Below, piece by piece: positions 32,746-48,275 of a stretch of 64,000 nucleotides of DNA. Under the pieces are notes generated by a model, which did no database searches, was not told the DNA's origin, and saw only the letters and a list, made by a program, of their open reading frames with translations. How positions within the stretch are numbered: position 1 is the first letter of the stretch; each line of letters begins with the position of its first letter. This DNA is from Candidatus Parcubacteria bacterium. GTDB taxonomy: Bacteria; Patescibacteriota; Patescibacteriia; Patescibacteriales; UBA12075. Where the stretch lies: the NCBI GenBank assembly GCA_023132155.1, contig JAGLYP010000002.1, forward strand, positions 6,598 to 70,597, read 5' to 3'. A program made the position numbers and the translations under genes.

Positions 32746-35232
32746 ATGGCAAACAACGATATATTTCTTAATTCATTGATTGTTTTTATTTTTTTATTTT
32801 TGTCCGCGTTGCTTGTTCTTTTTGCCGCAAAAATTATTATTAGAAAAGTAATTTCAAAAAATGAGCATTTTGACCATATTATTTATTTAATCCGCCTGCC
32901 AAAAGATAAGCCCGGCAATCAAGAGAGGGAGGATTCTGTCCAACAGCTAAGAGAAGAGATAGCCAAGGGCGAAACTATTTTTTCCAGTATTGGCGGTTTG
33001 CGCGCGCAAAGGGGTTTTTGGGCTTGGTTTAAAGGCAGAAGCGACCATTTTTCATTTGAGATTGCGGCAAGTAAAAAGAAAATCGTTTTTTACGCTGTTG
33101 CTCCGCGAAAATTAGGCCGCTATATAGAACAGCAGATTCATGCCCATTACCCCGAAGCCGTAATTGAGGAAGTGGATGATTATAATATTTTTACGGCAAA
33201 ATCCCACGTGGTTGCCGGATTTTTAAAAGCAAGTAGAAGTTTTATTTTCCCCTTAAAGACATACAATAAAATGGAGGCTGATCCAATGAATTCAATTATT
33301 AATGTTATGTCAAAATTGGAGGTTGACGAAGGATTATCCATCCAGTATTTAGTCAGAAGCGCCAAGCCGGCTTGGCACGCCGGCGCCGCTAAAATCGCGG
33401 CTTGCATCCATAAAGGTGAAACAATGAAAGAAGCTTTAAAGAGCTTTAATAAAAATCCTTTTTTTGTTTTTTTAAGCGAAGCTATAAAGGCAGCCAAAAC
33501 AGAAAGCCCGGAAGAAAAGCAAAAAAAAATAAGCCAACAGCCGCCGCGCTTGACCGCGATGGAAGAGGAGATGCTAAAGGGGATTGAAGAAAAAAATTCC
33601 AAGGCCGGTTTGGACGTAAATTTGCGCGTAATTGTCAGCGCCAAGAACGCGGGGCAGGCGCGATTGTATCTTGATAATCTTTCCAGCGCTTATAGCCAAT
33701 ATAATTATTATGAATACGGCAATAGTTTTGGCAATAAAATAAAGATTAAAAAACAGAAAAAATTGATTAGCGATTATATTTATCGCCGCTTTGATGATCG
33801 TATCGGATTTTTGCTTAACACCGAGGAATTGGCAAGCCTTTATCATTTGCCTTTAAAAACTTCGGAAACGCCGAATATTTTATGGCTAACAGCGCGGCAT
33901 GCGGCAGCGCCTGTAAATATCCCCGGAGAAGGATTGCTCTTGGGGCGGAATATTTATCGCGGAGAAGTGTCTGATGTCAGAGTTAAAAGAGCGGATCGCA
34001 GGCGGCATACATATGTCGTCGGTAAGTCCGGTACCGGTAAATCAAAGCTAATCGCCGGTATGGCAATTCAGGATATTTTAAACGGCGAAGGGATATGTTT
34101 GCTTGATCCTCACGGCGATTTGGTGGCTGATGTTTTAAATCGTATTCCGCCGGAAAGAGCCGAGGATGTAATTTTATTCGCGCCGGCCGACACTGAAAGG
34201 CCTTTGGCTTTTAATTTATTGGAATACGATCCTAAGTATCCGGAACAAAAAACTTTTGTAATTAATGAGATGATTAAGATTTTTGATAAATTGTACGATT
34301 TAAAGGCAACCGGCGGACCGATTTTTGAACAATACGTGCGCAATGCCATGCTTTTGATTATGAGCGATCCGGCATCGGGCTCAACTTTGATGGAAATTCC
34401 GAAAGTATTGGCTGACGCGGATTTCAGGAAAATGAAATTAAAAAAATGTTCCGACCCTACTGTTGTGGATTTTTGGAAAAAAGAGGCTGAAAAAGCCGGC
34501 GGCGACGCGGCCCTGGCCAATGTAGTGCCGTATGTTACTTCAAAATTGACGCAATTTATTTCCAATGATACGATGAGGCCGATTATCGGCCAGCAAAAAA
34601 GCTCTTTTAGCATTCGGGATGTAATGGATAAGCAAAAAATACTGTTAGTGGATTTGTCCAAGGGGCAAGTCGGGGAAATGAATTCATATTTGCTCGGTAT
34701 GATTTTGGTGGGAAAAATTTTAATAGCGGCATTATCGCGTACGGATATTAGCGAGGAAAAACGCAAGGATTTTTATTTGTATATTGATGAGTTTCAAAAT
34801 TTTACCACTGATTCAATCTGCTCAATTCTTTCAGAAGCCCGCAAATATAATTTAAATTTAATTATCGCGCATCAATATTTGGGGCAATTGGCTAAAAATC
34901 AGGATACGTCAATCAAGGATGCTGTTTTCGGCAATGTCGGCACGATGATGGTGTTTAAGATCGGCTCTGAAGACGCGGAATTTTTATCAAAAGAATTCAG
35001 CCCGGTGTTTAATCAGTTTGATTTGATAAATATTGAAAAATATACTACTTATGTAAAATTATTGATTGACAATACGGCAGGCCGCCCTTTTTCAATGGCA
35101 ACCCTGTGGCCTTTGCCTGGAATTGAGCGCGAAGGCATGGCTGGAAAAATCAAAACATTAAGCCGTTTAAAGTTCGGCCAAGATAGAAACATAATTGAAG
35201 CGGAAATCAGAAAAAGAACCGTTGGCGGGTAA
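32746..35232 (+). CDS. membrane-anchored VirD4/TraG/TraD-like (type IV coupling protein-like) P-loop ATPase
   Basis: N-terminal TM helix. Walker A is VVGKSGTGKS, followed by LLDPHGDL. Walker B is FYLYIDEFQNF. C-terminal region has IIAHQY. Confidence 0.65.
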   Translation: MANNDIFLNSLIVFIFLFLSALLVLFAAKIIIRKVISKNEHFDHIIYLIRLPKDKPGNQEREDSVQQLREEIAKGETIFSSIGGLRAQRGFWAWFKGRSDHFSFEIAASKKKIVFYAVAPRKLGRYIEQQIHAHYPEAVIEEVDDYNIFTAKSHVVAGFLKASRSFIFPLKTYNKMEADPMNSIINVMSKLEVDEGLSIQYLVRSAKPAWHAGAAKIAACIHKGETMKEALKSFNKNPFFVFLSEAIKAAKTESPEEKQKKISQQPPRLTAMEEEMLKGIEEKNSKAGLDVNLRVIVSAKNAGQARLYLDNLSSAYSQYNYYEYGNSFGNKIKIKKQKKLISDYIYRRFDDRIGFLLNTEELASLYHLPLKTSETPNILWLTARHAAAPVNIPGEGLLLGRNIYRGEVSDVRVKRADRRRHTYVVGKSGTGKSKLIAGMAIQDILNGEGICLLDPHGDLVADVLNRIPPERAEDVILFAPADTERPLAFNLLEYDPKYPEQKTFVINEMIKIFDKLYDLKATGGPIFEQYVRNAMLLIMSDPASGSTLMEIPKVLADADFRKMKLKKCSDPTVVDFWKKEAEKAGGDAALANVVPYVTSKLTQFISNDTMRPIIGQQKSSFSIRDVMDKQKILLVDLSKGQVGEMNSYLLGMILVGKILIAALSRTDISEEKRKDFYLYIDEFQNFTTDSICSILSEARKYNLNLIIAHQYLGQLAKNQDTSIKDAVFGNVGTMMVFKIGSEDAEFLSKEFSPVFNQFDLINIEKYTTYVKLLIDNTAGRPFSMATLWPLPGIEREGMAGKIKTLSRLKFGQDRNIIEAEIRKRTVGG

Positions 35233-37954: not shown

Positions 37955-38028
37955 TCGGGGATCGTCTAATGGTAGGACATCAGGTTCTGGTCCTGGGTAT
38001 CGGGGTTCGAATCCCTGTCCCCGAGCCA
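37955..38028 (+). tRNA. tRNA-Gln (anticodon CTG), CCA encoded
   Basis: Hand-folded. Acceptor TCGGGGA/TCCCCGA. D arm GTCT-AATGGTA-GGAC. Anticodon stem TCAGG/CCTGG with loop TT-CTG-GT. T arm CGGGG-TTCGAAT-CCCTG. Discriminator G plus CCA. Confidence 0.9.
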
Positions 38029-38312: not shown

Positions 38313-38555
38313 TTAGGCCGCAATCTTCAATTTTGTTAATTTTGCGTTTAAAGCTAACTTTATATATTCAATCATCCGGCTAAATCCTGTCCGTCCGGCG
38401 CTTTCAGCAGTTTCGTCGTCCTCAAATTCTTTGACCACTTCAAAATCATTTGCTTTGGCATAATCGGCAAGCAATTTTCTTTGAGCGGGGATTGAGTATC
38501 CCTCTTGTTTTTGTTCTTTGGATGATACGCGGACGTAGATTATTGATTTTGGCAT
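38313..38555 (-). pseudogene. serine recombinase, N-terminal catalytic stub only (about 68 homologous aa)
   Basis: IIYVRVSSKEQKQEGYSIPAQ (catalytic Ser motif) and GRTGFSRMIEYI. Homology stops after about 68 aa and the ORF ends at 80 aa. No recombinase-like sequence downstream. Confidence 0.7.
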
Positions 38556-38559
38556 AAAT

Positions 38560-40419
38560 TTATAATTCCATGGTTGTCTGCTTATGCTTTTTTTCTAGTT
38601 TTTTATTAATTTTTTCTATCTTCTTTCTCTGTGTTTCAAGCATATTTTCCGTTCTTTTTGAAATTATTGTGTAATGAGATTCTGGTAATTCTTTTTTAAG
38701 AAATAAACCTTCAATATAGCGCATCCTTTCTTCAAGTTCTTGAATATTGTCTTTCGTTTCTTCATATTCTAAATCTAACGACTCTTCTTCTAGGGCGATA
38801 TCTAAAACATATGTAAATCCCCTGTATGCGGCTTTATGAATATCGGAATTACACACTTCTAATAACCTTGAAGGTACTTTTGGAATAATACCTCTGTGTA
38901 GGGCAACCCCAAAATCAAGCGAGCACAAAATTCCTGACCCTTTCCAGTTGGCTAAACTAGTTTTTCTGGATCTTGTTCTTTTTTTATCATGGATAATACC
39001 GACGGAAATTAAATTTGCTATTTCACCTGCGCTTCTAGCCGCAGTAGTAAAATATATTGTAATAGGTGTTTTTTTATCTGTATCAAGTCCGCTATTTTTA
39101 GTTTCAATACCCTTATTTCTCCGAGCAAATTTTTTTATTATTTTTTCCAATATTATGTTATCTTGATCGGTTAATGTGCTGTCGATTAATAAAGATGGTC
39201 CTTCTATAACTTGCGCTACTGCTGAAATTATATAGTTTATATCAATTTTTTTTGGAGTTTCAGTTTTTTTCTTTTCAAAATCTCTGATTAATTGTGTGTA
39301 GGCTTGTTTTAATATTTCAAGAAATCGTCTTGGCACACCTCCGGAGCAATAAGCAGCAATTGTTATTAAATTTTCATTTTCAAATACTTCGCTAATTGAT
39401 TTTTGAGTCTTTGTGTTTTTTGTCAATCTATTTTCAATTAATTGTTTAAAAAATGGCTCGTATTCATCGTTTAACTCATCTAATTCTAAATATTCCAATG
39501 TACAATCATGGCCAGGCTGAAAATTAAAATCATCCCCTCGAGTTGTTGCGGGATAATACGTGCTATGTGGAGGATAAACAGCAGCAATAAATACAATGTC
39601 AGGATTACATAAGTCCTTACCTCCACTTGCAGACCCCCTTATTTGTTTGCAGAGTCGAAAAATTTCGATTTGCATTTTTTTTGTTGATTCTGAACACTCA
39701 TCCAATAGTATGTAAATATAATTTAAGTTAAGTAATTTTTTTACAGTTTTTAGAAATGATATTAGGATATCAATTCCGTAGATATCAGATAGTTTTTGAG
39801 TCGTGTATTCTTTAATTTTTTCATCCTCAGAAACATTTTCCATTTTCGCTGTTGCAGATAGGGGCGGCATATCTATTCCAACGCCGCCTTCAGAATTAAA
39901 TTTTTTGCATACCCTTGTTATAATTTTATCTGGGTTGTCATACAAATCGCTTATGATATTATTTGCAAGTAACAATATTTTTTTTATATTTTTTTCAAGA
40001 GTAGCTTCTTCGCTTATTCCAAATAAATTTACTAATTTTTTAACCATTCCAGCTTCCGTTTCGTTTATAAATTTTTCTTTATTATCATTAATAAATTTCA
40101 TTACATATTTGATAACACTGATATATAAAAAAACTCTAAAATATTTAGGATCCTTTTTAGTTAATTGCGGCGCACTTGCGACAGTAACATATGCGGGGAT
40201 AATCCTAGTTTTGTTTAAATTATTTGATGCTTCTGTGATTATCATTTTTAATATGTGCGTTTTTCCCGTTCCTCTTATTCCTTCTAATATATAATTCCCG
40301 CCTTTTTGAGAAATCAATTTTTTAAAATCGATACATAAATCTACGTGGGTATCTGGAGAAAAACCAGAACTTTGTGCATCATGGTTAAATATTGTTGAAT
40401 CTATTTGTATTACACTCAT
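38560..40419 (-). CDS. ORC/Cdc6-like AAA+ ATPase with C-terminal coiled coil, function unknown
   Basis: Walker A GIRGTGKTH. Walker B YIYILLDECSES. Sensor-2-like GGVPRRFLEILKQA. K/E-rich coiled coil in the last 80 aa or so. Confidence 0.6.
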   Translation of the reverse strand: MSVIQIDSTIFNHDAQSSGFSPDTHVDLCIDFKKLISQKGGNYILEGIRGTGKTHILKMIITEASNNLNKTRIIPAYVTVASAPQLTKKDPKYFRVFLYISVIKYVMKFINDNKEKFINETEAGMVKKLVNLFGISEEATLEKNIKKILLLANNIISDLYDNPDKIITRVCKKFNSEGGVGIDMPPLSATAKMENVSEDEKIKEYTTQKLSDIYGIDILISFLKTVKKLLNLNYIYILLDECSESTKKMQIEIFRLCKQIRGSASGGKDLCNPDIVFIAAVYPPHSTYYPATTRGDDFNFQPGHDCTLEYLELDELNDEYEPFFKQLIENRLTKNTKTQKSISEVFENENLITIAAYCSGGVPRRFLEILKQAYTQLIRDFEKKKTETPKKIDINYIISAVAQVIEGPSLLIDSTLTDQDNIILEKIIKKFARRNKGIETKNSGLDTDKKTPITIYFTTAARSAGEIANLISVGIIHDKKRTRSRKTSLANWKGSGILCSLDFGVALHRGIIPKVPSRLLEVCNSDIHKAAYRGFTYVLDIALEEESLDLEYEETKDNIQELEERMRYIEGLFLKKELPESHYTIISKRTENMLETQRKKIEKINKKLEKKHKQTTMEL

Positions 40420-40546
40420 ATGTTTTGTTAAGTATAAAAATTATCTCCGTCTTTTTAAAATAAATTGTTAGCTAATTTTTATATTTATTAATTAATATCA
40501 ATTTTTTCCAAATTATTGCTTGCAATACATGATTTTAAATTCCTCA

Positions 40547-42106
40547 TTAATTTAATTTTGATCTAAATTTTTCAAACACCTTGCTTGTATATTGTTCCAT
40601 ATCAACAAAATTTTCTTTTTTAAGAGTTATGTCAACAAAATCTTCTATGTTGTAAGGCTTGATGTTTATCTCATTTTTTTCAGTTTTGCTTTCCACGACA
40701 GAAAAATCATAAAACTTTTTTGTGTCTTCATGAATTACCGGAGCGATAAAAGATAAATATTTTTTTGCATGATCAATAAATTCCTCGCCTGAACTTAGAT
40801 GCCTAATCACGGAAGTTGTTTCATTATTTAATTGCTGGGATTTATTTCTTATTAATGTAACTTCAATTAGCCAATACAATTTTAGAGAATAAATTTCAAT
40901 ATCACCTATATTGCCTGGCGCGTGAGAATAAGGTTTGCCTATGTGGTCGGCTTTATAATTGGGTCGTATTGCAAACTCTTTGCCGTATTTAAGCGCCACC
41001 AGTATAGTAATATAAAATTCTAATTTTAATGGTTTAGGTATTTCCTGAAATTCTTCAATGATTTCCTTTTTCGAATCAATTAAATTTATGCTTTGACAAA
41101 TTATTTTTTCATTTATTTTGTAAGTATTTATAATATTGAATACTTTGTTTGCGTATTCTTCACCGTCTATTCGATCAACTTCACGATATTTTTCTACAAT
41201 CGCCAAATATTCATCGTTGGTGCTATCTAATTTGTTAAAATATTTTTTTGCGTCTTCCTTTTCTGTTGAGTCCAATGAGAACTCAACGGATAATATTTTT
41301 TTAATGTAGTCTAATTTATTTTCATTAATTTGCATTAATTTAATTCCGTCATAACGAATTGTCACAAACCCGGAAATAATTAAAACTCGTCTTACAACAT
41401 CTGGATAATCCCTAACTATGGTTTCTGTTTTATTTGTAGCGCCATAATTTTTTCTCACAAAATTTTCTGCAGCGTTAGCGTCTTTGAATTTATTATTTTT
41501 TATAATATTTAAAAATTCCCTAACATCACCATCGCAACTGAACATGGACACAATAAATTGCTCATAGCTTAAAGATTTATTTTTTTTACGCAAAGTAAAA
41601 AGGACTTCAAGGATAAATTTGAAAAAATTATAATCATTTTTTATATTTCTATAAGGAGATTTACGATTTGATTTCATTGCCTGAATTGAAAAAGCCTCTT
41701 GTTCATCAATTTTTTCCTCAATTAGCATTTTAGCAATTTTTGAAAATTTAAATTCTTCATTATATTGCGCATAAACCATTCCTAATTCTGACATGGTTCG
41801 CATGTACGTCCAGAATCTTGAAGTGTATCCAGCAGGAAAGCCGCCGTCTGCTCTTCGCGTACTATTTACTTTAATAACTTTATTTTTAATATTAGCTACG
41901 GTCGAAGTTTCTGTAATAACTATTCCGTCACTCTTGAATTCTCCGATTAAATATAGATTGCTGACAATCTCCAGTAAACGTTTCTTGTCTAAAATTTTAC
42001 CTTCATATTTTTTTAAAGCCTTTAAAATTCCTAAATATCTTTCAGGATTTCTAACAGCAGTTTCAAAAGCCATTTGTTTATAAGTAGGTTTTCTTTTTGT
42101 CGTCAT
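40547..42106 (-). CDS. AlwI/MlyI/PleI/N.BstNBI-family type IIS restriction endonuclease-like protein
   Basis: Recalled family motifs: N-terminal RNPERYLGILKALKKYEG (cf. RSPEK...L..L..FEG of N.BstNBI) and catalytic region HAPGNIGDIEIY...LIEVTL (cf. HAAGNQPDMEII...GEVTT). Operonic with two adenine MTases. Confidence 0.7.
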   Translation of the reverse strand: MTTKRKPTYKQMAFETAVRNPERYLGILKALKKYEGKILDKKRLLEIVSNLYLIGEFKSDGIVITETSTVANIKNKVIKVNSTRRADGGFPAGYTSRFWTYMRTMSELGMVYAQYNEEFKFSKIAKMLIEEKIDEQEAFSIQAMKSNRKSPYRNIKNDYNFFKFILEVLFTLRKKNKSLSYEQFIVSMFSCDGDVREFLNIIKNNKFKDANAAENFVRKNYGATNKTETIVRDYPDVVRRVLIISGFVTIRYDGIKLMQINENKLDYIKKILSVEFSLDSTEKEDAKKYFNKLDSTNDEYLAIVEKYREVDRIDGEEYANKVFNIINTYKINEKIICQSINLIDSKKEIIEEFQEIPKPLKLEFYITILVALKYGKEFAIRPNYKADHIGKPYSHAPGNIGDIEIYSLKLYWLIEVTLIRNKSQQLNNETTSVIRHLSSGEEFIDHAKKYLSFIAPVIHEDTKKFYDFSVVESKTEKNEINIKPYNIEDFVDITLKKENFVDMEQYTSKVFEKFRSKLN

Positions 42107-42113
42107 ATGAATA

Positions 42114-43019
42114 TTAATAATTAGTAATCAAAACCTCCTTTATCTTTTTTTTCTTGTTATTATGATAGCTAATATAATTACTTATTATTTTATGTGCTTT
42201 ATATTTTTTCATCCATTTAATTAATAATTCGTTTCTATCTCCGTTATAGTGTGTTACATTTGAGAGCGCGAATTTTACCCCTTGTTTATTTAATGAATCG
42301 GCTAAATCTAATAAATCAGCTTCTGATTTTTTATCCCAAAGTTTGTTGTATTCACTTGCAGCAATTAGGTATGGCGGATCTAAGTAGATAAAATCATTCT
42401 TTGTAATTTTTTTTCTAGAGAAAAACGTCCGAAAATCTTTTGTGCTTAAATATATTTTTTTATCAAAAACAAAATCAAAATAATTATTTAAAGCGTTGAC
42501 AACATTTTTGTTAAAATCCACGTTACCAACTGGCAGATTAAATTTGCCACCTCCATTAAATCTAAGCATTCTGTTAAAACCGTAAATAAGCAAAATATAC
42601 AAAATTAACGGATTGTTTTGTTTGTTCTTGTTGACCTGTACTCTGAGTTTTTCATAGCCTTCTTTGTTGAATTTGGCAAAATAAGTTTTAACCCACTCTT
42701 TTCTTAGAGTGGCCGGAATTATATTTTTTTTATATGATCTTGATAAATTGTATTTGTAAATTATTTTTTCAACATCTCGAAAAAATTTATTAGGATTTTT
42801 AGCGCTCTTGATTAAGAAGTTATGAATGTTAACAAGATTTTTATCAATATCATTCAAATAATATTTATTTGCGTTTATATTTAAAAAAACTGTTCCTCCG
42901 CCAGTAAAAGGTTCATAAAAATTATTTATTTTATTTGGAAACAAATCAATTAGCTGTTTCATCAGCTTATATTTATCTCCGACATAAAATAAAGGTGATC
43001 TTTTTATTTTTTTATTCAT
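42114..43019 (-). CDS. D12-class (Dam-like, alpha) N6-adenine DNA methyltransferase
   Basis: FYVGDKYKL, EPFTGGGTV (motif I), FNRMLRFN..GKFNLPVG, and LDPPY (motif IV). Confidence 0.85.
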   Translation of the reverse strand: MNKKIKRSPLFYVGDKYKLMKQLIDLFPNKINNFYEPFTGGGTVFLNINANKYYLNDIDKNLVNIHNFLIKSAKNPNKFFRDVEKIIYKYNLSRSYKKNIIPATLRKEWVKTYFAKFNKEGYEKLRVQVNKNKQNNPLILYILLIYGFNRMLRFNGGGKFNLPVGNVDFNKNVVNALNNYFDFVFDKKIYLSTKDFRTFFSRKKITKNDFIYLDPPYLIAASEYNKLWDKKSEADLLDLADSLNKQGVKFALSNVTHYNGDRNELLIKWMKKYKAHKIISNYISYHNNKKKKIKEVLITNY

Positions 43020-43020
43020 G

Positions 43021-44823
43021 TTAAACCTTGGTTACAAATAAATATTCTTTATGATTGTTAAAATTTGTGTTGCCAGCGTTAAAATGTCTATATTTTTTTT
43101 CAAAAATTTTCGTTTTGCCTTTTTTTGCTAATATGTCTTTAATCTCCTGAAGTGTAATTTTATTTTTTGATGAATTACTTTTTGATTCGTAAGTATTATT
43201 ATATGAAACCACAAGATATTTTACATTAAGGTCTTGAACTAATTTATTAAATTTGTCTTTAGCTTGAACTCGACAATAATCGCTCATATTTTCAGGCTCT
43301 GGCTTTAAGGCTACTCCATATAGGCTTGGTTTATCCCATTTCGTCAAAGTTTCTAAAACATGATAAAAACGGCTGTATTGTCTTGAATTATATGGTGGGT
43401 CTATATAAACAATATCTGCGTTAATTTTTTTGGCAAGTTGATTTGTATCTTCTCTATAAATAGAAATATTTTTTACACTAATTGGATCTATTGGTCGCAT
43501 AAAGAATTTATCATCAATAAAATCCTTTTTAAAATACGCATCATAGTGTCCAACAGTATTTGCAATTTTGTCAATTGAATATAGTAATGACGAAATAAGC
43601 ATGTAATATTCCTTGGTTGTCAAATTATCTTTGTTATCTTCAATATTATTTCTAATGGTACCAATAATTTTTGATGAATTTTGACTAAAATATTTTCCGC
43701 CAAAATTTTTAGAAAAATAATTATCACTTAGATTTTCTCTTTCAATACTATTATAGTCTTTGATTATATTTTCAATTTTTTCTTTGTTCCATTCACCGTT
43801 CCCAAAAAAGGCTTGATAAATGGCATAATTGGAAAATAAAAAATCATTCAATATTATTTTTTTAAAATGTTTTGCTGCGACAGCAGAGACAACGCCTGTT
43901 CCCGCGAATACATCAACAAACGAATCACCGCTGCACTCTTTTTCAAGAATGGAAAAAATCCACTCAATTAATTTATATTTACTGCCAATATATCTACGAT
44001 TTTGTAATTGAATATAATTTTTTTTAACTGGTGGTATATAAAAATATGTTTCTTGAATTTTTTCAGCGTTTACTTCATAAGTTGGTTTTTCCGCTTCCAT
44101 TAAATCAAATAAAGTTCCTTGTACACCATCTGCTACATAGTCAACGTTTGCGCTTTGACCTTTTAATTTATTATAAAAACTATAACTACCCTTGCTGGCT
44201 GTAATTATAAAGTCTATAACAGGAATGCCCATTAAATCACTAGCGCCTGTTATTCTTTTAACAATTTTGATATCTTTTTCACTCGGATTTGGATTTCCTG
44301 AAGGATGATTATGTACTAGAATAATACACGCAGCATTTAATTCAACGGCTGGTTGAAAAATTTCTCTTGGGTGCAATAAACTCTTATCCAAAAGACCGAC
44401 ACTTATTATTTCCTTTTTAATTAAAATATTTCTGGCATTTAAATATAAGCATACCAAATACTCCTTTTTTTTGTCCCTTAAATCATAAGTTAATGATAAA
44501 ATATTTTTTGAGTTTTTTATTATTATTTCATTACTTTCTTTATCTTCATAAAATCTTTTTACTAACGAAATAGCTGAAATTATTTGCAAAGCCTTGGCTT
44601 GTCCAATACCGGAAATTTTTAGAAGATCATCAATGGAAATATTTAGAAAATTATTACCAAATTTTTTTATTATCTGCTGAGAAAGTTTTTGTACATTTTT
44701 ACCTTTTATGCCGCTTCCTAGCAGGATAGCTAATAAATCACTTTTGGAAAGCGAGTCAGGACCTTTTTGCAAAAATTTTTCCCTAGGCCTATCAACTTGT
44801 GGAATGTCTTTTATCTTTGGCAT
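43021..44823 (-). CDS. fusion protein: RadC-like JAB/MPN domain (aa 1 to about 225) plus D12-class N6-adenine DNA methyltransferase (aa about 270-600)
   Basis: RadC motifs DRPREKF, GIGQAKA and HNHPSGNPNPSEKD. MTase motifs RYIGSKYKL, DVFAGTGVV and YIDPPYNSRQY. Confidence 0.8.
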   Translation of the reverse strand: MPKIKDIPQVDRPREKFLQKGPDSLSKSDLLAILLGSGIKGKNVQKLSQQIIKKFGNNFLNISIDDLLKISGIGQAKALQIISAISLVKRFYEDKESNEIIIKNSKNILSLTYDLRDKKKEYLVCLYLNARNILIKKEIISVGLLDKSLLHPREIFQPAVELNAACIILVHNHPSGNPNPSEKDIKIVKRITGASDLMGIPVIDFIITASKGSYSFYNKLKGQSANVDYVADGVQGTLFDLMEAEKPTYEVNAEKIQETYFYIPPVKKNYIQLQNRRYIGSKYKLIEWIFSILEKECSGDSFVDVFAGTGVVSAVAAKHFKKIILNDFLFSNYAIYQAFFGNGEWNKEKIENIIKDYNSIERENLSDNYFSKNFGGKYFSQNSSKIIGTIRNNIEDNKDNLTTKEYYMLISSLLYSIDKIANTVGHYDAYFKKDFIDDKFFMRPIDPISVKNISIYREDTNQLAKKINADIVYIDPPYNSRQYSRFYHVLETLTKWDKPSLYGVALKPEPENMSDYCRVQAKDKFNKLVQDLNVKYLVVSYNNTYESKSNSSKNKITLQEIKDILAKKGKTKIFEKKYRHFNAGNTNFNNHKEYLFVTKV

Positions 44824-44826
44824 ACT

Positions 44827-44986
44827 TTATTTTATTAAATCATCTTCAATCTCAATAATATCATCCCTATTAATATCCAATGCCTCTGCAATTGAATCAA
44901 AAAATAATCCGTCATCTCTTAATTTGTTGCAGGTTTCAGACGAGCATTTAATTTGAATTGTTATTTTATCATTATTTTTATTCATA
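44827..44986 (-). pseudogene. frameshifted small HTH (XRE-like) regulator, 4 nt upstream of the RadC-MTase gene
   Basis: ATG at 44986 opens MNKNNDKITIQIKCSF then TGA. The +1 frame continues SETCNKLRDDGLFFDSIAEALDINRDDIIEIEDDLIK* (helix-turn-helix-like). One extra T near 44940 breaks the frame. Confidence 0.45.
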
Positions 44987-45121
44987 GCATTTTATTTTAT
45001 TAAATCATCAATACCAATTTCCAAGACTTTGGCAATTTTAAAATTTTATTACACTGTTGTAAGCATTATTATATCACAATTTTAATAATAGATAAACAAC
45101 TAAAAAGTTGTGTAATAAAAG

Positions 45122-45337
45122 CTAAAATTCACAAGCAACCCCATCAGAATCGTCATCCAAATTATGAACATCATAACCGACTTTTTGCATACAACAATCA
45201 TACATATCACGCGCCTTACGGCGCGTTTTAAAGTCCGCGCAATTATAATGGTCAGAGCGGCAAGAACGGGCTATGTTAATTTTTGCGGAATAAAAATGGA
45301 CAAAAAGGTTAGCATAAATTAAAAAATGTACGTACAA
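45122..45337 (-). CDS. Excalibur calcium-binding domain protein (short, possibly a fragment)
   Basis: C-terminal NCADFKTRRKARDMYDCC....DVHNLDDDSDGVACEF matches the Excalibur DxDxDGxxCE signature. Confidence 0.55.
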   Translation of the reverse strand: MYVHFLIYANLFVHFYSAKINIARSCRSDHYNCADFKTRRKARDMYDCCMQKVGYDVHNLDDDSDGVACEF

Positions 45338-45629
45338 ATGTACGTACTCCGCCCGTACATAATTTTTTATCCAGACGTAATAGCATATTAATAAGCAAAC
45401 CGGCTGTTTGCTTGCTTATCGGCAATTCCGAAATAATAGCTGATAAACGAGCGCCCTCTAAAAGAGAATTTTGATAGGCAAACCAAGTCCGAGAAGGCTC
45501 GATATGCGCTTTTACATATCACATTGCCGAAGTAATAGATGATTTTTCCAAATATGACCTTGGTAGTTTTCATTTTTTACATAAACAAGTTCCATATATA
45601 AACTTCTATGATTTTGAATTAGCAAAGAA

Positions 45630-45659
45630 AAAAGCCTTTTCGCGCGCGAAAAGGCTTTT
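45630..45659. terminator. perfect 30-bp palindrome, terminator of the 45689 gene
   Basis: AAAAGCCTTTTCGCG | CGCGAAAAGGCTTTT, flanked by A/T runs on both sides. Confidence 0.75.
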
Positions 45660-45688
45660 TGCTAATATTTTTTATAAATATCGCCTTT

Positions 45689-46826: not shown

Positions 46827-48275
46827 TTATTTTGGCGGTGGCGGCACAAAACAGCTAACATTATCACTCTCGTTACCGCTAGTGTCAATTGCGTAAATTA
46901 TAGCATCGCTATTCAGCATTATGTGGGCGGAAATGGCTCCGGCTTGTCCTTTGGCGCTTCCCATGGGCTTTAACTTTGGCGTTGCTCCCGGACTTTCCGT
47001 GATTTTAACCTTATCGCCAGGCGCGAAAGGCCCGAACGGACCGGCTCCATATTTATCAGTTACAAAAATTTCAAGTGTTTCGTTAACATTGTCAACGGCC
47101 AACAGTTCATAGAATCCATCTTCATTTTTTCCTCCTTTGGATCCCGGCAGAGTAGTGCTTCCGGCTGGCGGGATTTTTTTGCCGTGCGGATTAACCGTTT
47201 CAACACAGCTTGCCTCCGGCGGAGTGGTGTCTGGCACGTAGATTGAAATTTTTTGGCGCCCAATCGGTTTTCCTTCTTCAGGGTAGCTATTGGCGATAAA
47301 TGTGACGATGCATTCCAGAGTTTTACCTTGAAGTTCCGGATCATCGTCTACGGCAATTGTTTCAGTAAAGTCAACAGTAGCGCCTCCGAGAACGTCTTTG
47401 TGGACAATTGGATCAAGCGTCACTGAAAGGCCTTCGTCGCAGTCGCCTTCCTTAATATTCCACCACACGTCAGTGGTTACTTCTTTAAGTCCGTTTAAGA
47501 TTGCCTCGGCGATATTGGCGCCGTCCGGACTTAAGGGCTGTACAGAGCCTCTGGTAGCGGCAGCCAGTACATCAAGCTCCGAATCAGTACCTGTTGCCTT
47601 AAGGCCGATTACAACGATGTTCTGAGCTTGAAGTGCGGCGATTGTTGAGGTTGCGTTATTGACATGCGGCTTGCCAACGCCGGGCAAGTGAAATGTCGCG
47701 TCAGTAGCTACTACAAGGACGCGCTGAACACCTGGTGTGATAGCTGGATCGCGCCATCCGCAGTCAGGCGTACCATCTCCAGGTCCTGTCGCGGCAACAA
47801 TAGCGTCGTACTGGGCTTCCGGCCAATCTCCGCCGCCGGCCGCGGTTAACGCGTTAACGCCGTTCATCCATGCATCTTTATCAGGACTCATGGTGCTTAA
47901 CAAACGATAAACATGATCGCCTGGAGAGCCGTAAGGCGGTTCATAATCACGAAAACCGGCAACAGCGAATTGAGCATCCGGACTTTCCGCTGTAATAGCA
48001 TCATAAATATCACTGGATGTAGTACCCTGCAGATTGTCAATATCATCCCAAAATGAGCCGGTTTCATCTTCAAGCAGACAAATATCCACAACAGTAGGAA
48101 CTTCAGGCGTGGTTATTTGTTTTTTTACTACCATGGATCCGCCCGGAGGCAACTCGCCCTCCACTGAAGGCGGTTCAATTTGTCCGTTAGCTCGCGATAC
48201 GCTAACAGCATTAGAGAAAACCATGCCCATACCGATAATAATGGTAAAGACAAGAAAAATTTTAGGTTTTTTCAT
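46827..48275 (-). CDS. secreted VWA/integrin-beta-like domain protein
   Basis: GGAGGG RBS and a signal peptide. MIDAS-like LEDETGSF (DxTGS) after a beta strand. Pro-rich C-terminus ending PPPPK. Strongly G+C-enriched relative to the window. Confidence 0.5.
   Translation of the reverse strand: MKKPKIFLVFTIIIGMGMVFSNAVSVSRANGQIEPPSVEGELPPGGSMVVKKQITTPEVPTVVDICLLEDETGSFWDDIDNLQGTTSSDIYDAITAESPDAQFAVAGFRDYEPPYGSPGDHVYRLLSTMSPDKDAWMNGVNALTAAGGGDWPEAQYDAIVAATGPGDGTPDCGWRDPAITPGVQRVLVVATDATFHLPGVGKPHVNNATSTIAALQAQNIVVIGLKATGTDSELDVLAAATRGSVQPLSPDGANIAEAILNGLKEVTTDVWWNIKEGDCDEGLSVTLDPIVHKDVLGGATVDFTETIAVDDDPELQGKTLECIVTFIANSYPEEGKPIGRQKISIYVPDTTPPEASCVETVNPHGKKIPPAGSTTLPGSKGGKNEDGFYELLAVDNVNETLEIFVTDKYGAGPFGPFAPGDKVKITESPGATPKLKPMGSAKGQAGAISAHIMLNSDAIIYAIDTSGNESDNVSCFVPPPPK

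Follow-up and report, generated by a model that had tools for sequence, protein, structure and literature searches.

The locus examined here raises the question of whether five adjacent genes on one strand make up a single defence system or several unrelated ones. It lies at positions 38313-44986 of a 64,000-nucleotide (nt) stretch of a Candidatus Parcubacteria bacterium genome (GenBank assembly GCA_023132155.1, contig JAGLYP010000002.1, positions 6,598 to 70,597 of the forward strand; hereafter the window), and it encodes a fusion of RadC to a DNA methyltransferase (MTase), a second MTase, an AlwI-family restriction endonuclease (REase), an ORC/Cdc6-like AAA+ ATPase and a piece of a serine recombinase. 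The original prediction, made from the sequence alone, took these genes for an undescribed multi-component conflict system in which the tightly linked ATPase was a component. Our analysis does not support such a five-gene system and finds three separable pieces instead. We read the region as a composite defence islet, with a probability of roughly 0.78: an AlwI-type IIS restriction-modification (R-M) cassette whose first MTase (M1) carries RadC, an independent ORC/Cdc6-like ATPase, and a dead recombinase stub. The genes are better regarded as a composite than as one system because the ATPase is unlinked to AlwI or RadC-MTase genes elsewhere. In a tblastn search, no AlwI or Dam homologue was found near the ATPase homologues at any of 28 genome loci, and the ATPase is absent from all 80 related cassettes found in metagenomes, as is the recombinase. 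The features of the region are as follows.

37955-38028, plus strand: tRNA-Gln (CTG), found with ARAGORN
38313-38555, minus strand: 80-amino-acid (aa) open reading frame (ORF), serine recombinase remnant (PF00239)
38560-40419, minus strand: 619-aa ORF, ORC/Cdc6-like AAA+ ATPase (PF24389)
40420-40546, minus strand: AT-rich 127-nt spacer between REase and ATPase (promoter scan, identity profile)
40547-42106, minus strand: 519-aa ORF, AlwI-family REase (RE_AlwI)
42114-43019, minus strand: 301-aa ORF, M2, Dam-family N6-adenine MTase (TIGR00571)
43021-44823, minus strand: 600-aa ORF, M1, RadC-D12 MTase fusion (UPF0758_N, RadC JAB and D12)
44827-44985, minus strand: 52-aa ORF, no family match in Pfam, NCBIfam or PADLOC scans
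44992-45039, minus strand: 3' remnant of a helix-turn-helix (HTH) regulator, its last 15 codons and stop (tblastn)
44826-44844 and 44991-45009: exact 19-nt direct repeat (repeat search)

The ORF map agrees with the predicted coordinates, lengths and gaps; from the stub to the 52-aa ORF the intergenic gaps are 4, 127, 7, 1 and 3 nt. The identities proposed for the genes also hold up on the matches given below: a RadC(JAB)-Dam fusion, a second Dam-class MTase, an AlwI-like endonuclease, an ORC/Cdc6-like AAA+ ATPase with a coiled-coil tail and a serine-recombinase stub. The NCBI names are 'DNA repair protein RadC' for the fusion, 'AlwI family type II restriction endonuclease' for the nuclease and 'hypothetical protein' for the ATPase.

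The REase matches the Pfam domain RE_AlwI (PF09491) at 181.9 bits against a cut-off of 23.1 (E 3e-53) and the PADLOC model REase_II (4e-41), with a weak match to the small subunit of R.BspD6I (2p14). Residues D387, D402, E415, T417, E429 and H436 are invariant in both REase subtypes described below and in an annotated AlwI-family enzyme, sequences that are 23-65% identical, and the catalytic core is intact. The catalytic motifs of both MTases are intact as well: M1, whose D12 MTase domain spans 43024-43992, has FAGTG at aa 306 and DPPY at aa 475, and M2 has FTGGG at aa 38 and DPPY at aa 214. M1 matches the PADLOC MTase_II model PDLC03373 (1.5e-127); M2 matches PDLC03383 (1.6e-106), TIGR00571 (138.8 bits, cut-off 114.85) and, in the PDB, T4 Dam (1yfj, 6e-41) and DpnM (2dpm). 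The MTase half of M1 and M2 map to the N-terminal and C-terminal halves, respectively, of the double-MTase models PDLC03292 and PDLC03287, and relatives with two fused D12 domains occur among the representative proteins (P0230, P0238 and P0261).

The locus thus contains an RE_AlwI domain with its core and the two N6-adenine MTases of an AlwI-type IIS system. AlwI itself pairs a nuclease for GGATC(4/5) with two adenine MTases, each specific to one strand and both joined in one chain (PMC4081073), and AlwI-family REases always accompany a pair of DNA-adenine and Dam MTases, either fused or as two proteins (PMC12898733). The type IIS reading of the two adenine MTases and the nuclease, already proposed in the original prediction, is borne out by this textbook architecture and by a RadC-less homologue on a Lactococcus plasmid. 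The cassette would consist of a small HTH regulator (degraded here), M1, M2 and the REase; M1 and M2 would methylate adenine, each on one strand of an asymmetric site, and the nuclease would cut unmethylated DNA nearby. The per-strand roles and the specificity are inferred. Because M2 is strongly similar to the GATC-specific enzymes T4 Dam and DpnM, the recognition site probably contains GATC. In the window, GAGTC is weakly depleted, with an observed/expected ratio (O/E) of 0.79. GATC as such is under-represented there (210 observed, 332 expected under a Markov model), and the most depleted asymmetric 5-mer is GAGAC/GTCTC (O/E 0.45); neither count is tied here to the cassette.

The same cassette recurs in many genomes. 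Seven loci (L011-L017), which represent three related fusion proteins, carry the genes in the order RadC-Dam, Dam (301 aa) and RE_AlwI (505-555 aa) within differing flanks. A metagenome scan yielded the 80 further loci, and wherever these are of sufficient length the gene trio and its order are preserved. In all, the public loci with this cassette number more than 80 and span several phyla. The Lactococcus lactis plasmid NZ_CP065734.1 carries a RadC-less version, annotated 'DNA adenine methylase - Dam family MTase - AlwI family type II restriction endonuclease', whose first MTase is 56% identical to the MTase half of M1. The window's cassette therefore shares content and order with the AlwI system and the plasmid cassette (DNA-adenine MTase, Dam-family MTase, AlwI-family REase), but differs from the AlwI system in that M1 has RadC (HhH and JAB domains), the two MTases are encoded by separate genes and not joined in one chain, and the REase is a divergent subtype. 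This subtype is in the minority, and against the REase carried by most sister cassettes it reaches only about 27% identity. Of 58 complete cassettes (among L052-L131), 55 combine an M1 and M2 about 75% identical to those of the window with a REase only about 27% identical; a REase 59-76% identical to the window's is found only in L083, L092 and L123, and in the partial L091 and L114. This points either to exchange of the REase beside a conserved pair of MTases or to a far higher rate of evolution of the REase than of the MTases.

The position downstream of the REase, which the ATPase occupies in the window, could be followed in the 49 cassettes whose sequence extends 1.5 kb or more past the REase. 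The gene that follows mostly lies on the same strand and often starts 2-12 nt past the REase stop, yet its identity varies. Among 42 fourth-position genes scanned, there were nine of OLD/GajA type, four AAA_13 genes resembling PrrC/RloC (PDC-S06), two each of Shedu, HerA and DUF4357 (PDC-S14), one SIR2-domain gene, one KAP NTPase and a few transposases. No intergenic recombination element after the REase is shared among the cassettes, where the fourth genes simply start close behind the stop. Upstream, between the HTH gene and M1, DUF4357 occurs in 18 loci and T5orf172 in 4, and in those 18 loci the DUF4357/PDC-S14 gene sits 3 nt before M1. Because the position after the REase is filled by such varied defence genes, the cassette seems to nucleate small defence islands. 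The window's ATPase stands in a slot taken elsewhere by stand-alone defence NTPases, which, through equivalence of position only, lends circumstantial support to a defence role.

A sister strain, represented by contigs L046-L049, carries a 94%-identical ATPase and allows the fates of the pieces to be compared. Two segments are shared, window 44645-43939 (the RadC part, 98% identity) and window 41517-38359 (the REase C-terminus, ATPase and recombinase stub, 94% identity). The intervening window 43938-41518, which holds the M1 MTase domain, all of M2 and the REase N-terminus, is replaced in the sister by L046 708-2900, with genes for a DUF3644 protein, a PLD-family (NgoFVII-like) nuclease and an 85-aa ORF. 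Both breakpoints are intragenic, modification and restriction were lost at the same time, and the R-M system of the sister is dead because these parts have been replaced. The sister's ATPase, in contrast, is intact and has a ratio of nonsynonymous to synonymous divergence (dN/dS) of 0.07 relative to the window, which denotes purifying selection. Its synonymous divergence (dS) from the window is 0.35 against 0.06 for the adjoining REase fragment, a six-fold gap that indicates allelic replacement or a distinct history of the ATPase segment, and identity to the sister drops from 97-100% to 84-97% precisely at the 127-nt spacer. The dS gap, the identity step and the retention of the ATPase after loss of the R-M enzymes together argue for a separate history of, and selection on, the ATPase. 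The spacer also holds a promoter-like site at 40459-40431. Thus, the ATPase is best seen as an independent neighbour and not an R-M subunit, perhaps with a defensive function.

The ATPase matches PF24389 at 45.3 bits against a gathering cut-off of 27. Its Walker A motif (GIRGTGKTH, aa 47-55), Walker B DE (aa 240-241) and arginine pair RR (aa 364-365) are invariant in 34 sequences; a winged-helix region is also present, and aa ~547-618 form a coiled-coil tail. An AlphaFold2 model (mean predicted confidence, pLDDT, 83) contains the AAA+ base, lid and winged helix and finds archaeal Orc1/Cdc6 as its top Foldseek matches (2qby at 1e-6, 1w5s, 2v1u), with weaker matches to HslU, RFC and RdrA (8e-4); a PDB profile search with the ATPase alignment returned only a spurious P450 match. 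The modelled likeness to Orc1/Cdc6 goes with an identity of about 12%, and the window protein differs in having a much larger helical insert (strands 2-3), an extra conserved N-terminal motif and the coiled-coil tail, and in belonging to a family that is sporadic in Firmicutes and sits in variable regions. That family gave 102 matches in three parts: a clade of ~610-630 aa from the candidate phyla radiation (CPR) and DPANN, a clade of ~545 aa from Firmicutes and Methanosarcinales, and cold-shock-domain fusions from Proteobacteria. The proteobacterial members (P0075-P0100; Colwellia, Alteromonas) are 620-960 aa long with a cold-shock domain (PF00313), which hints at nucleic-acid sensing. No effector domain was found in the ATPase with Pfam or Foldseek, and a literature search for 'PF24389' returned no paper.

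No conserved partner emerged for the ATPase. Close homologues lie at a contig end, within an island of NgoPII, C5-MTase and Vsr genes, or beside SLFN/AlbA_2 genes. Clustering of flanking ORFs found no conserved neighbour, and the largest cluster, large serine recombinases, was present at 3 of 30 loci; as a partner this candidate failed, lying within 3.5 kb in those three loci only and adjacent in none. Among 149 neighbours compared with Pfam and PADLOC, no family occurred more than four times, and they comprised scattered defence genes (MzaB/C/D, type I R-M, AbiK/DRT, Cas3-like), mobile-element genes and housekeeping genes. In Phosphitispora and a metagenome-assembled Carboxydocellales genome (L033 and L037; 8001-15200), a homologue lies ~200 nt upstream of MzaB/MzaC/MzaD-like genes (Z1, DUF4420, HATPase). 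The idea, raised by these two genomes, that the ATPase is MzaA was rejected for lack of a match to the PADLOC Mza or MADS models.

The PADLOC search suggested in the original prediction gave a divided answer: the R-M enzymes match REase_II and MTase_II models, but among 5027 defence-protein models none matches the ATPase significantly (best mad8, 22 bits, 1.8e-5), and its homologues gave only noise. BrxC/PglY and BrxD of BREX, DUF499/MtsA of MANTIS/Gao_RL, mad8 of MADS and RdrA of RADAR share an ORC/Cdc6-like AAA+ core and a place in defence islands with the window's ATPase, yet the likeness is limited to the weak mad8 and RdrA matches, and PADLOC and Pfam gave no significant match to any of them. 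For BREX, MANTIS/Gao_RL, MADS, DISARM and RADAR, moreover, the region contains no partner genes. With the R-M guardians (PrrC in EcoprrI, RloC, PARIS) the locus shares a P-loop NTPase gene beside or inside an R-M locus, and in other members of the cassette family this slot is taken by PrrC/RloC-like AAA_13 or OLD/GajA genes. The window's ATPase differs from guardians in being of ORC/Cdc6-type AAA+ rather than ABC architecture, in lacking a nuclease or anticodon nuclease domain, and in belonging to a family that is not consistently R-M-linked, whereas prrC always is (PMC3458546); neither consistent R-M linkage nor a toxic effector was found for it. We envisage the ATPase as stand-alone cargo of a defence island, which would act as a DNA-binding, ATP-driven sensor or remodeller.

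M1 carries the second subject of interest, its RadC module. The UPF0758_N/HhH domain (44590-44814) and RadC JAB domain (44170-44517) both score above curated thresholds (PF04002 121 bits, PF20582 82 bits; PDB 2qlc 2e-21), and the RadC part exceeds the cut-off of the NCBIfam equivalog PRK00024 (207.4 bits, cut-off 180). The JAMM motif HNHPSGNPNPSEKD at 44272-44313 is intact, and its residues E121, H171, H173, S181 and D184 are invariant in all aligned fused and free RadC proteins. Behind it, at 44101-44142, lies a conserved linker, DYVADGVQGTLFDL, specific to the fusion: a DYVADGVQGTLFDL-like motif is common to all fusions aligned, and free RadC proteins are without it.

A JAB-MTase fusion had been predicted, and the fusion is real and without any description that we found, but it is not specific to this locus: M1-type fusions form more than 120 protein clusters at 75-80% full-length identity, from Patescibacteria lineages, Candidatus Infernicultor (Atribacterota) and Nanoarchaeota bins. 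The two halves of M1 co-diverge, with 75% and 78% identity to the window protein, and clustering at 50% leaves two full-length RadC-D12 clusters, 76% and 40% identical. An apparent ~690-nt insertion in the fusion gene of some loci proved to be an artefact, in which the match had been joined to the Dam paralogue downstream. Close relatives of the RadC module (41-63% identical) are found on C5 MTases (P0237, P0240, P0328 and P0234) and on an N6_N4 MTase (P0302). Of the top 120 clusters for P0240, about 45 are RadC-C5 fusions, with SUP05/Thioglobus symbionts, Beckwithbacteria and Parcubacteria among their sources. Next after the C5 fusion comes an MTaX1 gene, whereas an EcoRII-C REase gene lies 9 nt behind the N6_N4 fusion.

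The RadC part is usually kept, though not always. Of 67 D12 cassettes that could be assessed, RadC is complete in 57, has lost JAB in frame while retaining HhH in 3, and is absent from 7; several of these seven are visible internal deletions that keep the first 8-10 RadC codons, and one has an HTH in its place. JAB-only in-frame deletions with HhH (UPF0758_N) still on the MTase were seen in L112/L113 and L111 and in P0389, P0390 and P0422. Such JAB-less, HhH-only variants occur in both the D12 and the C5 fusion lineages, and their origin in both suggests that the HhH domain has a value of its own. Since a regulator gene lies upstream of RadC and the halves co-diverge, RadC is placed inside the mobile cassette, and to judge from these comparisons the module is ancestral to the cassette clade and usually retained. 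The existence of deletion derivatives marks it as accessory and dispensable.

In the literature, RadC is described as fused to HhH, ArdC, primase and DinG and as part of polyvalent proteins (PMC3239186, PMC5512222, PMC11981726); whether the family acts catalytically as a peptidase or a nuclease is still unknown (PMC11981726). The window's module resembles these proteins in its JAB domain with N-terminal HhH, its DNA-conflict context and a predicted nucleic-acid-processing role, but it differs in sitting on the protective MTase of a chromosomal R-M operon, that is, on the host-defence side, and in its fusion-specific linker. Within the searchable literature we found no description of a RadC-MTase fusion: the architecture is not mentioned in the papers on RadC fusions, RadC is mentioned nowhere in a 2025 review of R-M biology (PMC12707154), and a 2026 survey of CPR methyltransferases mentions no fusions. 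The RadC-MTase fusion is thus widely recurrent yet apparently undescribed.

What RadC might do for an MTase can be framed by two proposals. The module may be a DNA-directed helper, the kind of role that we favour, and would then tether or process incoming single-stranded, nicked or hemimethylated DNA on behalf of its MTase; alternatively, it may act on or moderate the REase during establishment. DpnA of the DpnII system and the ArdC-RadC fusions offer analogies. DpnII resembles the window's cassette, by analogy only, as a GATC-family R-M system with two MTases of which one is specialised for a form of DNA, but DpnA has no RadC domain; DpnA is a second, competence-induced MTase for single-stranded DNA (PMC12707154). 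Extending these proposals, RadC with its linker could be a portable, catalytically active accessory of R-M MTases (of the D12, C5 and N6_N4 classes, in operons with AlwI, MTaX1 and EcoRII-C genes) that acts on DNA or on the cognate nuclease and licenses methylation, either of incoming or single-stranded DNA or during establishment in a new host; separately, the PF24389 ATPases could be a new single-gene defence family. We put this forward tentatively, as a proposal that stands somewhat below even odds. In pneumococcus, radC is reportedly a gene of the competence regulon.

Several observations weigh against our interpretation of the region as a composite islet and of its parts. The adjacency, shared strand and order of REase, ATPase and recombinase are kept in the sister lineage and are compatible with functional coupling; an NgoPII REase and the C5 MTase belonging to it flank one close homologue of the ATPase; and a fourth gene 2-12 nt past the REase could reflect R-M plus a guardian gene and not just an insertion hotspot. 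In the window, the 5-mer GGATC is not depleted (O/E 1.39). The AlphaFold2 model of the RadC-Dam fusion (pLDDT 61, linker below 50) is too poor to place the linker, the expression of the window's cassette is uncertain given its degraded HTH regulator, and the roles given above to RadC and to the ATPase are ones that we infer.

These points bear most directly on the possibility that the region is after all an integrated system, in which the ATPase loads or activates the MTases or nuclease, as MtsA does in MANTIS/Gao_RL, or serves as an R-M guardian, as PrrC does with EcoprrI. Precedents exist in MANTIS (bioRxiv 10.64898/2026.09.23.753747) and in the PrrC and PARIS guardians (PMC12707154), the ATPase shares its strand and a gap of only 127 nt with the REase, in an order kept in the sister, and elsewhere a P-loop NTPase gene often follows the REase at 2-12 nt or, in the NgoPII case, an ATPase homologue is embedded in the R-M locus. 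An integrated system is nonetheless very improbable, given that none of the 80 cassettes has the ATPase and none of the 28 ATPase loci has AlwI or Dam, that the sister kept its ATPase under purifying selection once the MTase domains and REase N-terminus were gone, and that dS differs six-fold between the ATPase and the REase fragment beside it; the ATPase also lacks a significant PADLOC match or a recognisable effector domain, and Dam-class MTases and AlwI-family REases are known to work without ATPases. The ATPase might also be no defence gene at all but serve the maintenance of a mobile element, as an Orc1/Cdc6-type initiator or a recombination accessory moved by the adjacent serine recombinase. 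The 4-nt gap between ATPase and stub, kept in the sister strain, is in keeping with this, as is a fold closest to archaeal Orc1/Cdc6 initiators in a close clade that includes DPANN archaea, and large serine recombinases lie within ~3.5 kb at 3 of 30 homologue loci, with rve integrases nearby in 3. We consider this, too, highly unlikely: searches found no ATPase match in 72,556 plasmid records (PLSDB) or in IMG/VR viral contigs and no structural match in BFVD at E <= 1e-3, no recombinase or other element gene is conserved as a partner, and most family members are from Firmicutes, which do not use ORC-type initiators.

A different doubt concerns M1, where a housekeeping radC could have been read through into an inserted R-M cassette, leaving an incidental fusion with no role in R-M. 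The NCBI name, simply 'DNA repair protein RadC', would fit, as would the RadC-less and JAB-deleted cassettes and the sister strain, which retains RadC at 98% identity with the MTase domain behind it replaced. However, the sister's breakpoint falls inside the MTase domain and not at the RadC/MTase junction, and the regulator upstream of RadC places RadC within the cassette. The fused gene moves as a unit across phyla at 75-80% identity with its halves co-diverging, its JAMM site is invariant, and the same RadC and linker occur on three unrelated classes of MTase, with a different restriction-type gene behind each. An incidental fusion is therefore unlikely, and we retain the reading of M1 as part of an R-M cassette within a composite islet.

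Upstream of M1, intact HTH_3 genes of 49-71 aa are present in L013-L016 and in 28 loci; the window has no intact HTH (C-protein-like) regulator there. The HTH gene that had been described as frameshifted is in fact a 5'-truncated remnant: KIAKVLEIGIDDLIK followed by a stop, at 45039-44992, corresponds to the final 15 codons of a 68-70-aa regulator (tblastn E 5e-6 against the intact 66-70-aa HTH genes of L059 and L070), and the window DNA upstream of it is unrelated to the regulator gene. The 52-aa ORF has marginal HTH-like similarity only (E 1e-3) and no HTH match in Pfam, but ends in DDLIK and a stop, as does the regulator. The 19-nt repeat brackets this ORF and spans both DDLIK ends, which suggests a partial tandem duplication or a recombination scar.

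At the other end, the stub matches PF00239 (4e-11, the Resolvase N-terminal domain) over aa 5-66 and includes the catalytic-serine region YVRVSSKEQ. Four full-length large serine recombinases used as tblastn queries matched only 38555-38358, with no further remnants toward the tRNA, so that of the catalytic, Recombinase and Zn-ribbon domains of such an enzyme only ~65 catalytic aa are left. The stub is a dead 5' remnant of a large serine recombinase and a relic of past mobility, and, because it is accompanied by a degraded regulator, the island appears to be an old, decaying insertion. The AT-richness that had been noticed is confirmed, at 29.0% GC for the island against 35.6% for the remaining window, with none of 221 same-size windows elsewhere under 32.4%. 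Its description as tRNA-Gln-flanked is correct as to the tRNA, but an exact-substring search of the window found no direct repeats of at least 14 nt derived from tRNA-Gln, nor were att-like general repeats found, and because no tRNA-derived repeat delimits the island, 'flanked' describes position only.

The surroundings of the islet add a few observations. A 482-aa ORF at 46827-48275 (minus strand), with a signal-peptide-like N-terminus, 49% GC against ~35% for the genome and no Pfam match on record, is probably a separate horizontal acquisition bordering the islet. On the other side, an 828-aa VirD4/TraG-like coupling-protein homologue (DUF8128, T4SS-DNA_transf and TraG-D_C; 32746-35232, plus strand) adjoins dnaX, with a DUF4012 protein further on, and may represent conjugation or DNA-uptake machinery near the islet. 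A 71-aa ORF at 45122-45337 has an Excalibur Ca-binding motif (21 bits, Pfam cut-off 22), and a perfect 14-bp bidirectional terminator-like hairpin at 45629-45660 lies between the islet and the next genes.

In summary, the new multi-component conflict system that had been claimed is not there, and the interest of the locus rests on the RadC-MTase module and on a candidate defence ATPase. The slot after the REase is hot-swappable, which nominates the window's ATPase as a candidate single-gene defence protein. The RadC-MTase operon, with its intact active site, specific linker and natural deletion variants, is a concrete and clonable assay system for what RadC does. If the proposed role of RadC as an accessory of R-M MTases is true, it would give a first defined functional context to RadC, a protein of nearly all bacteria that has gone without a resolved role for decades.

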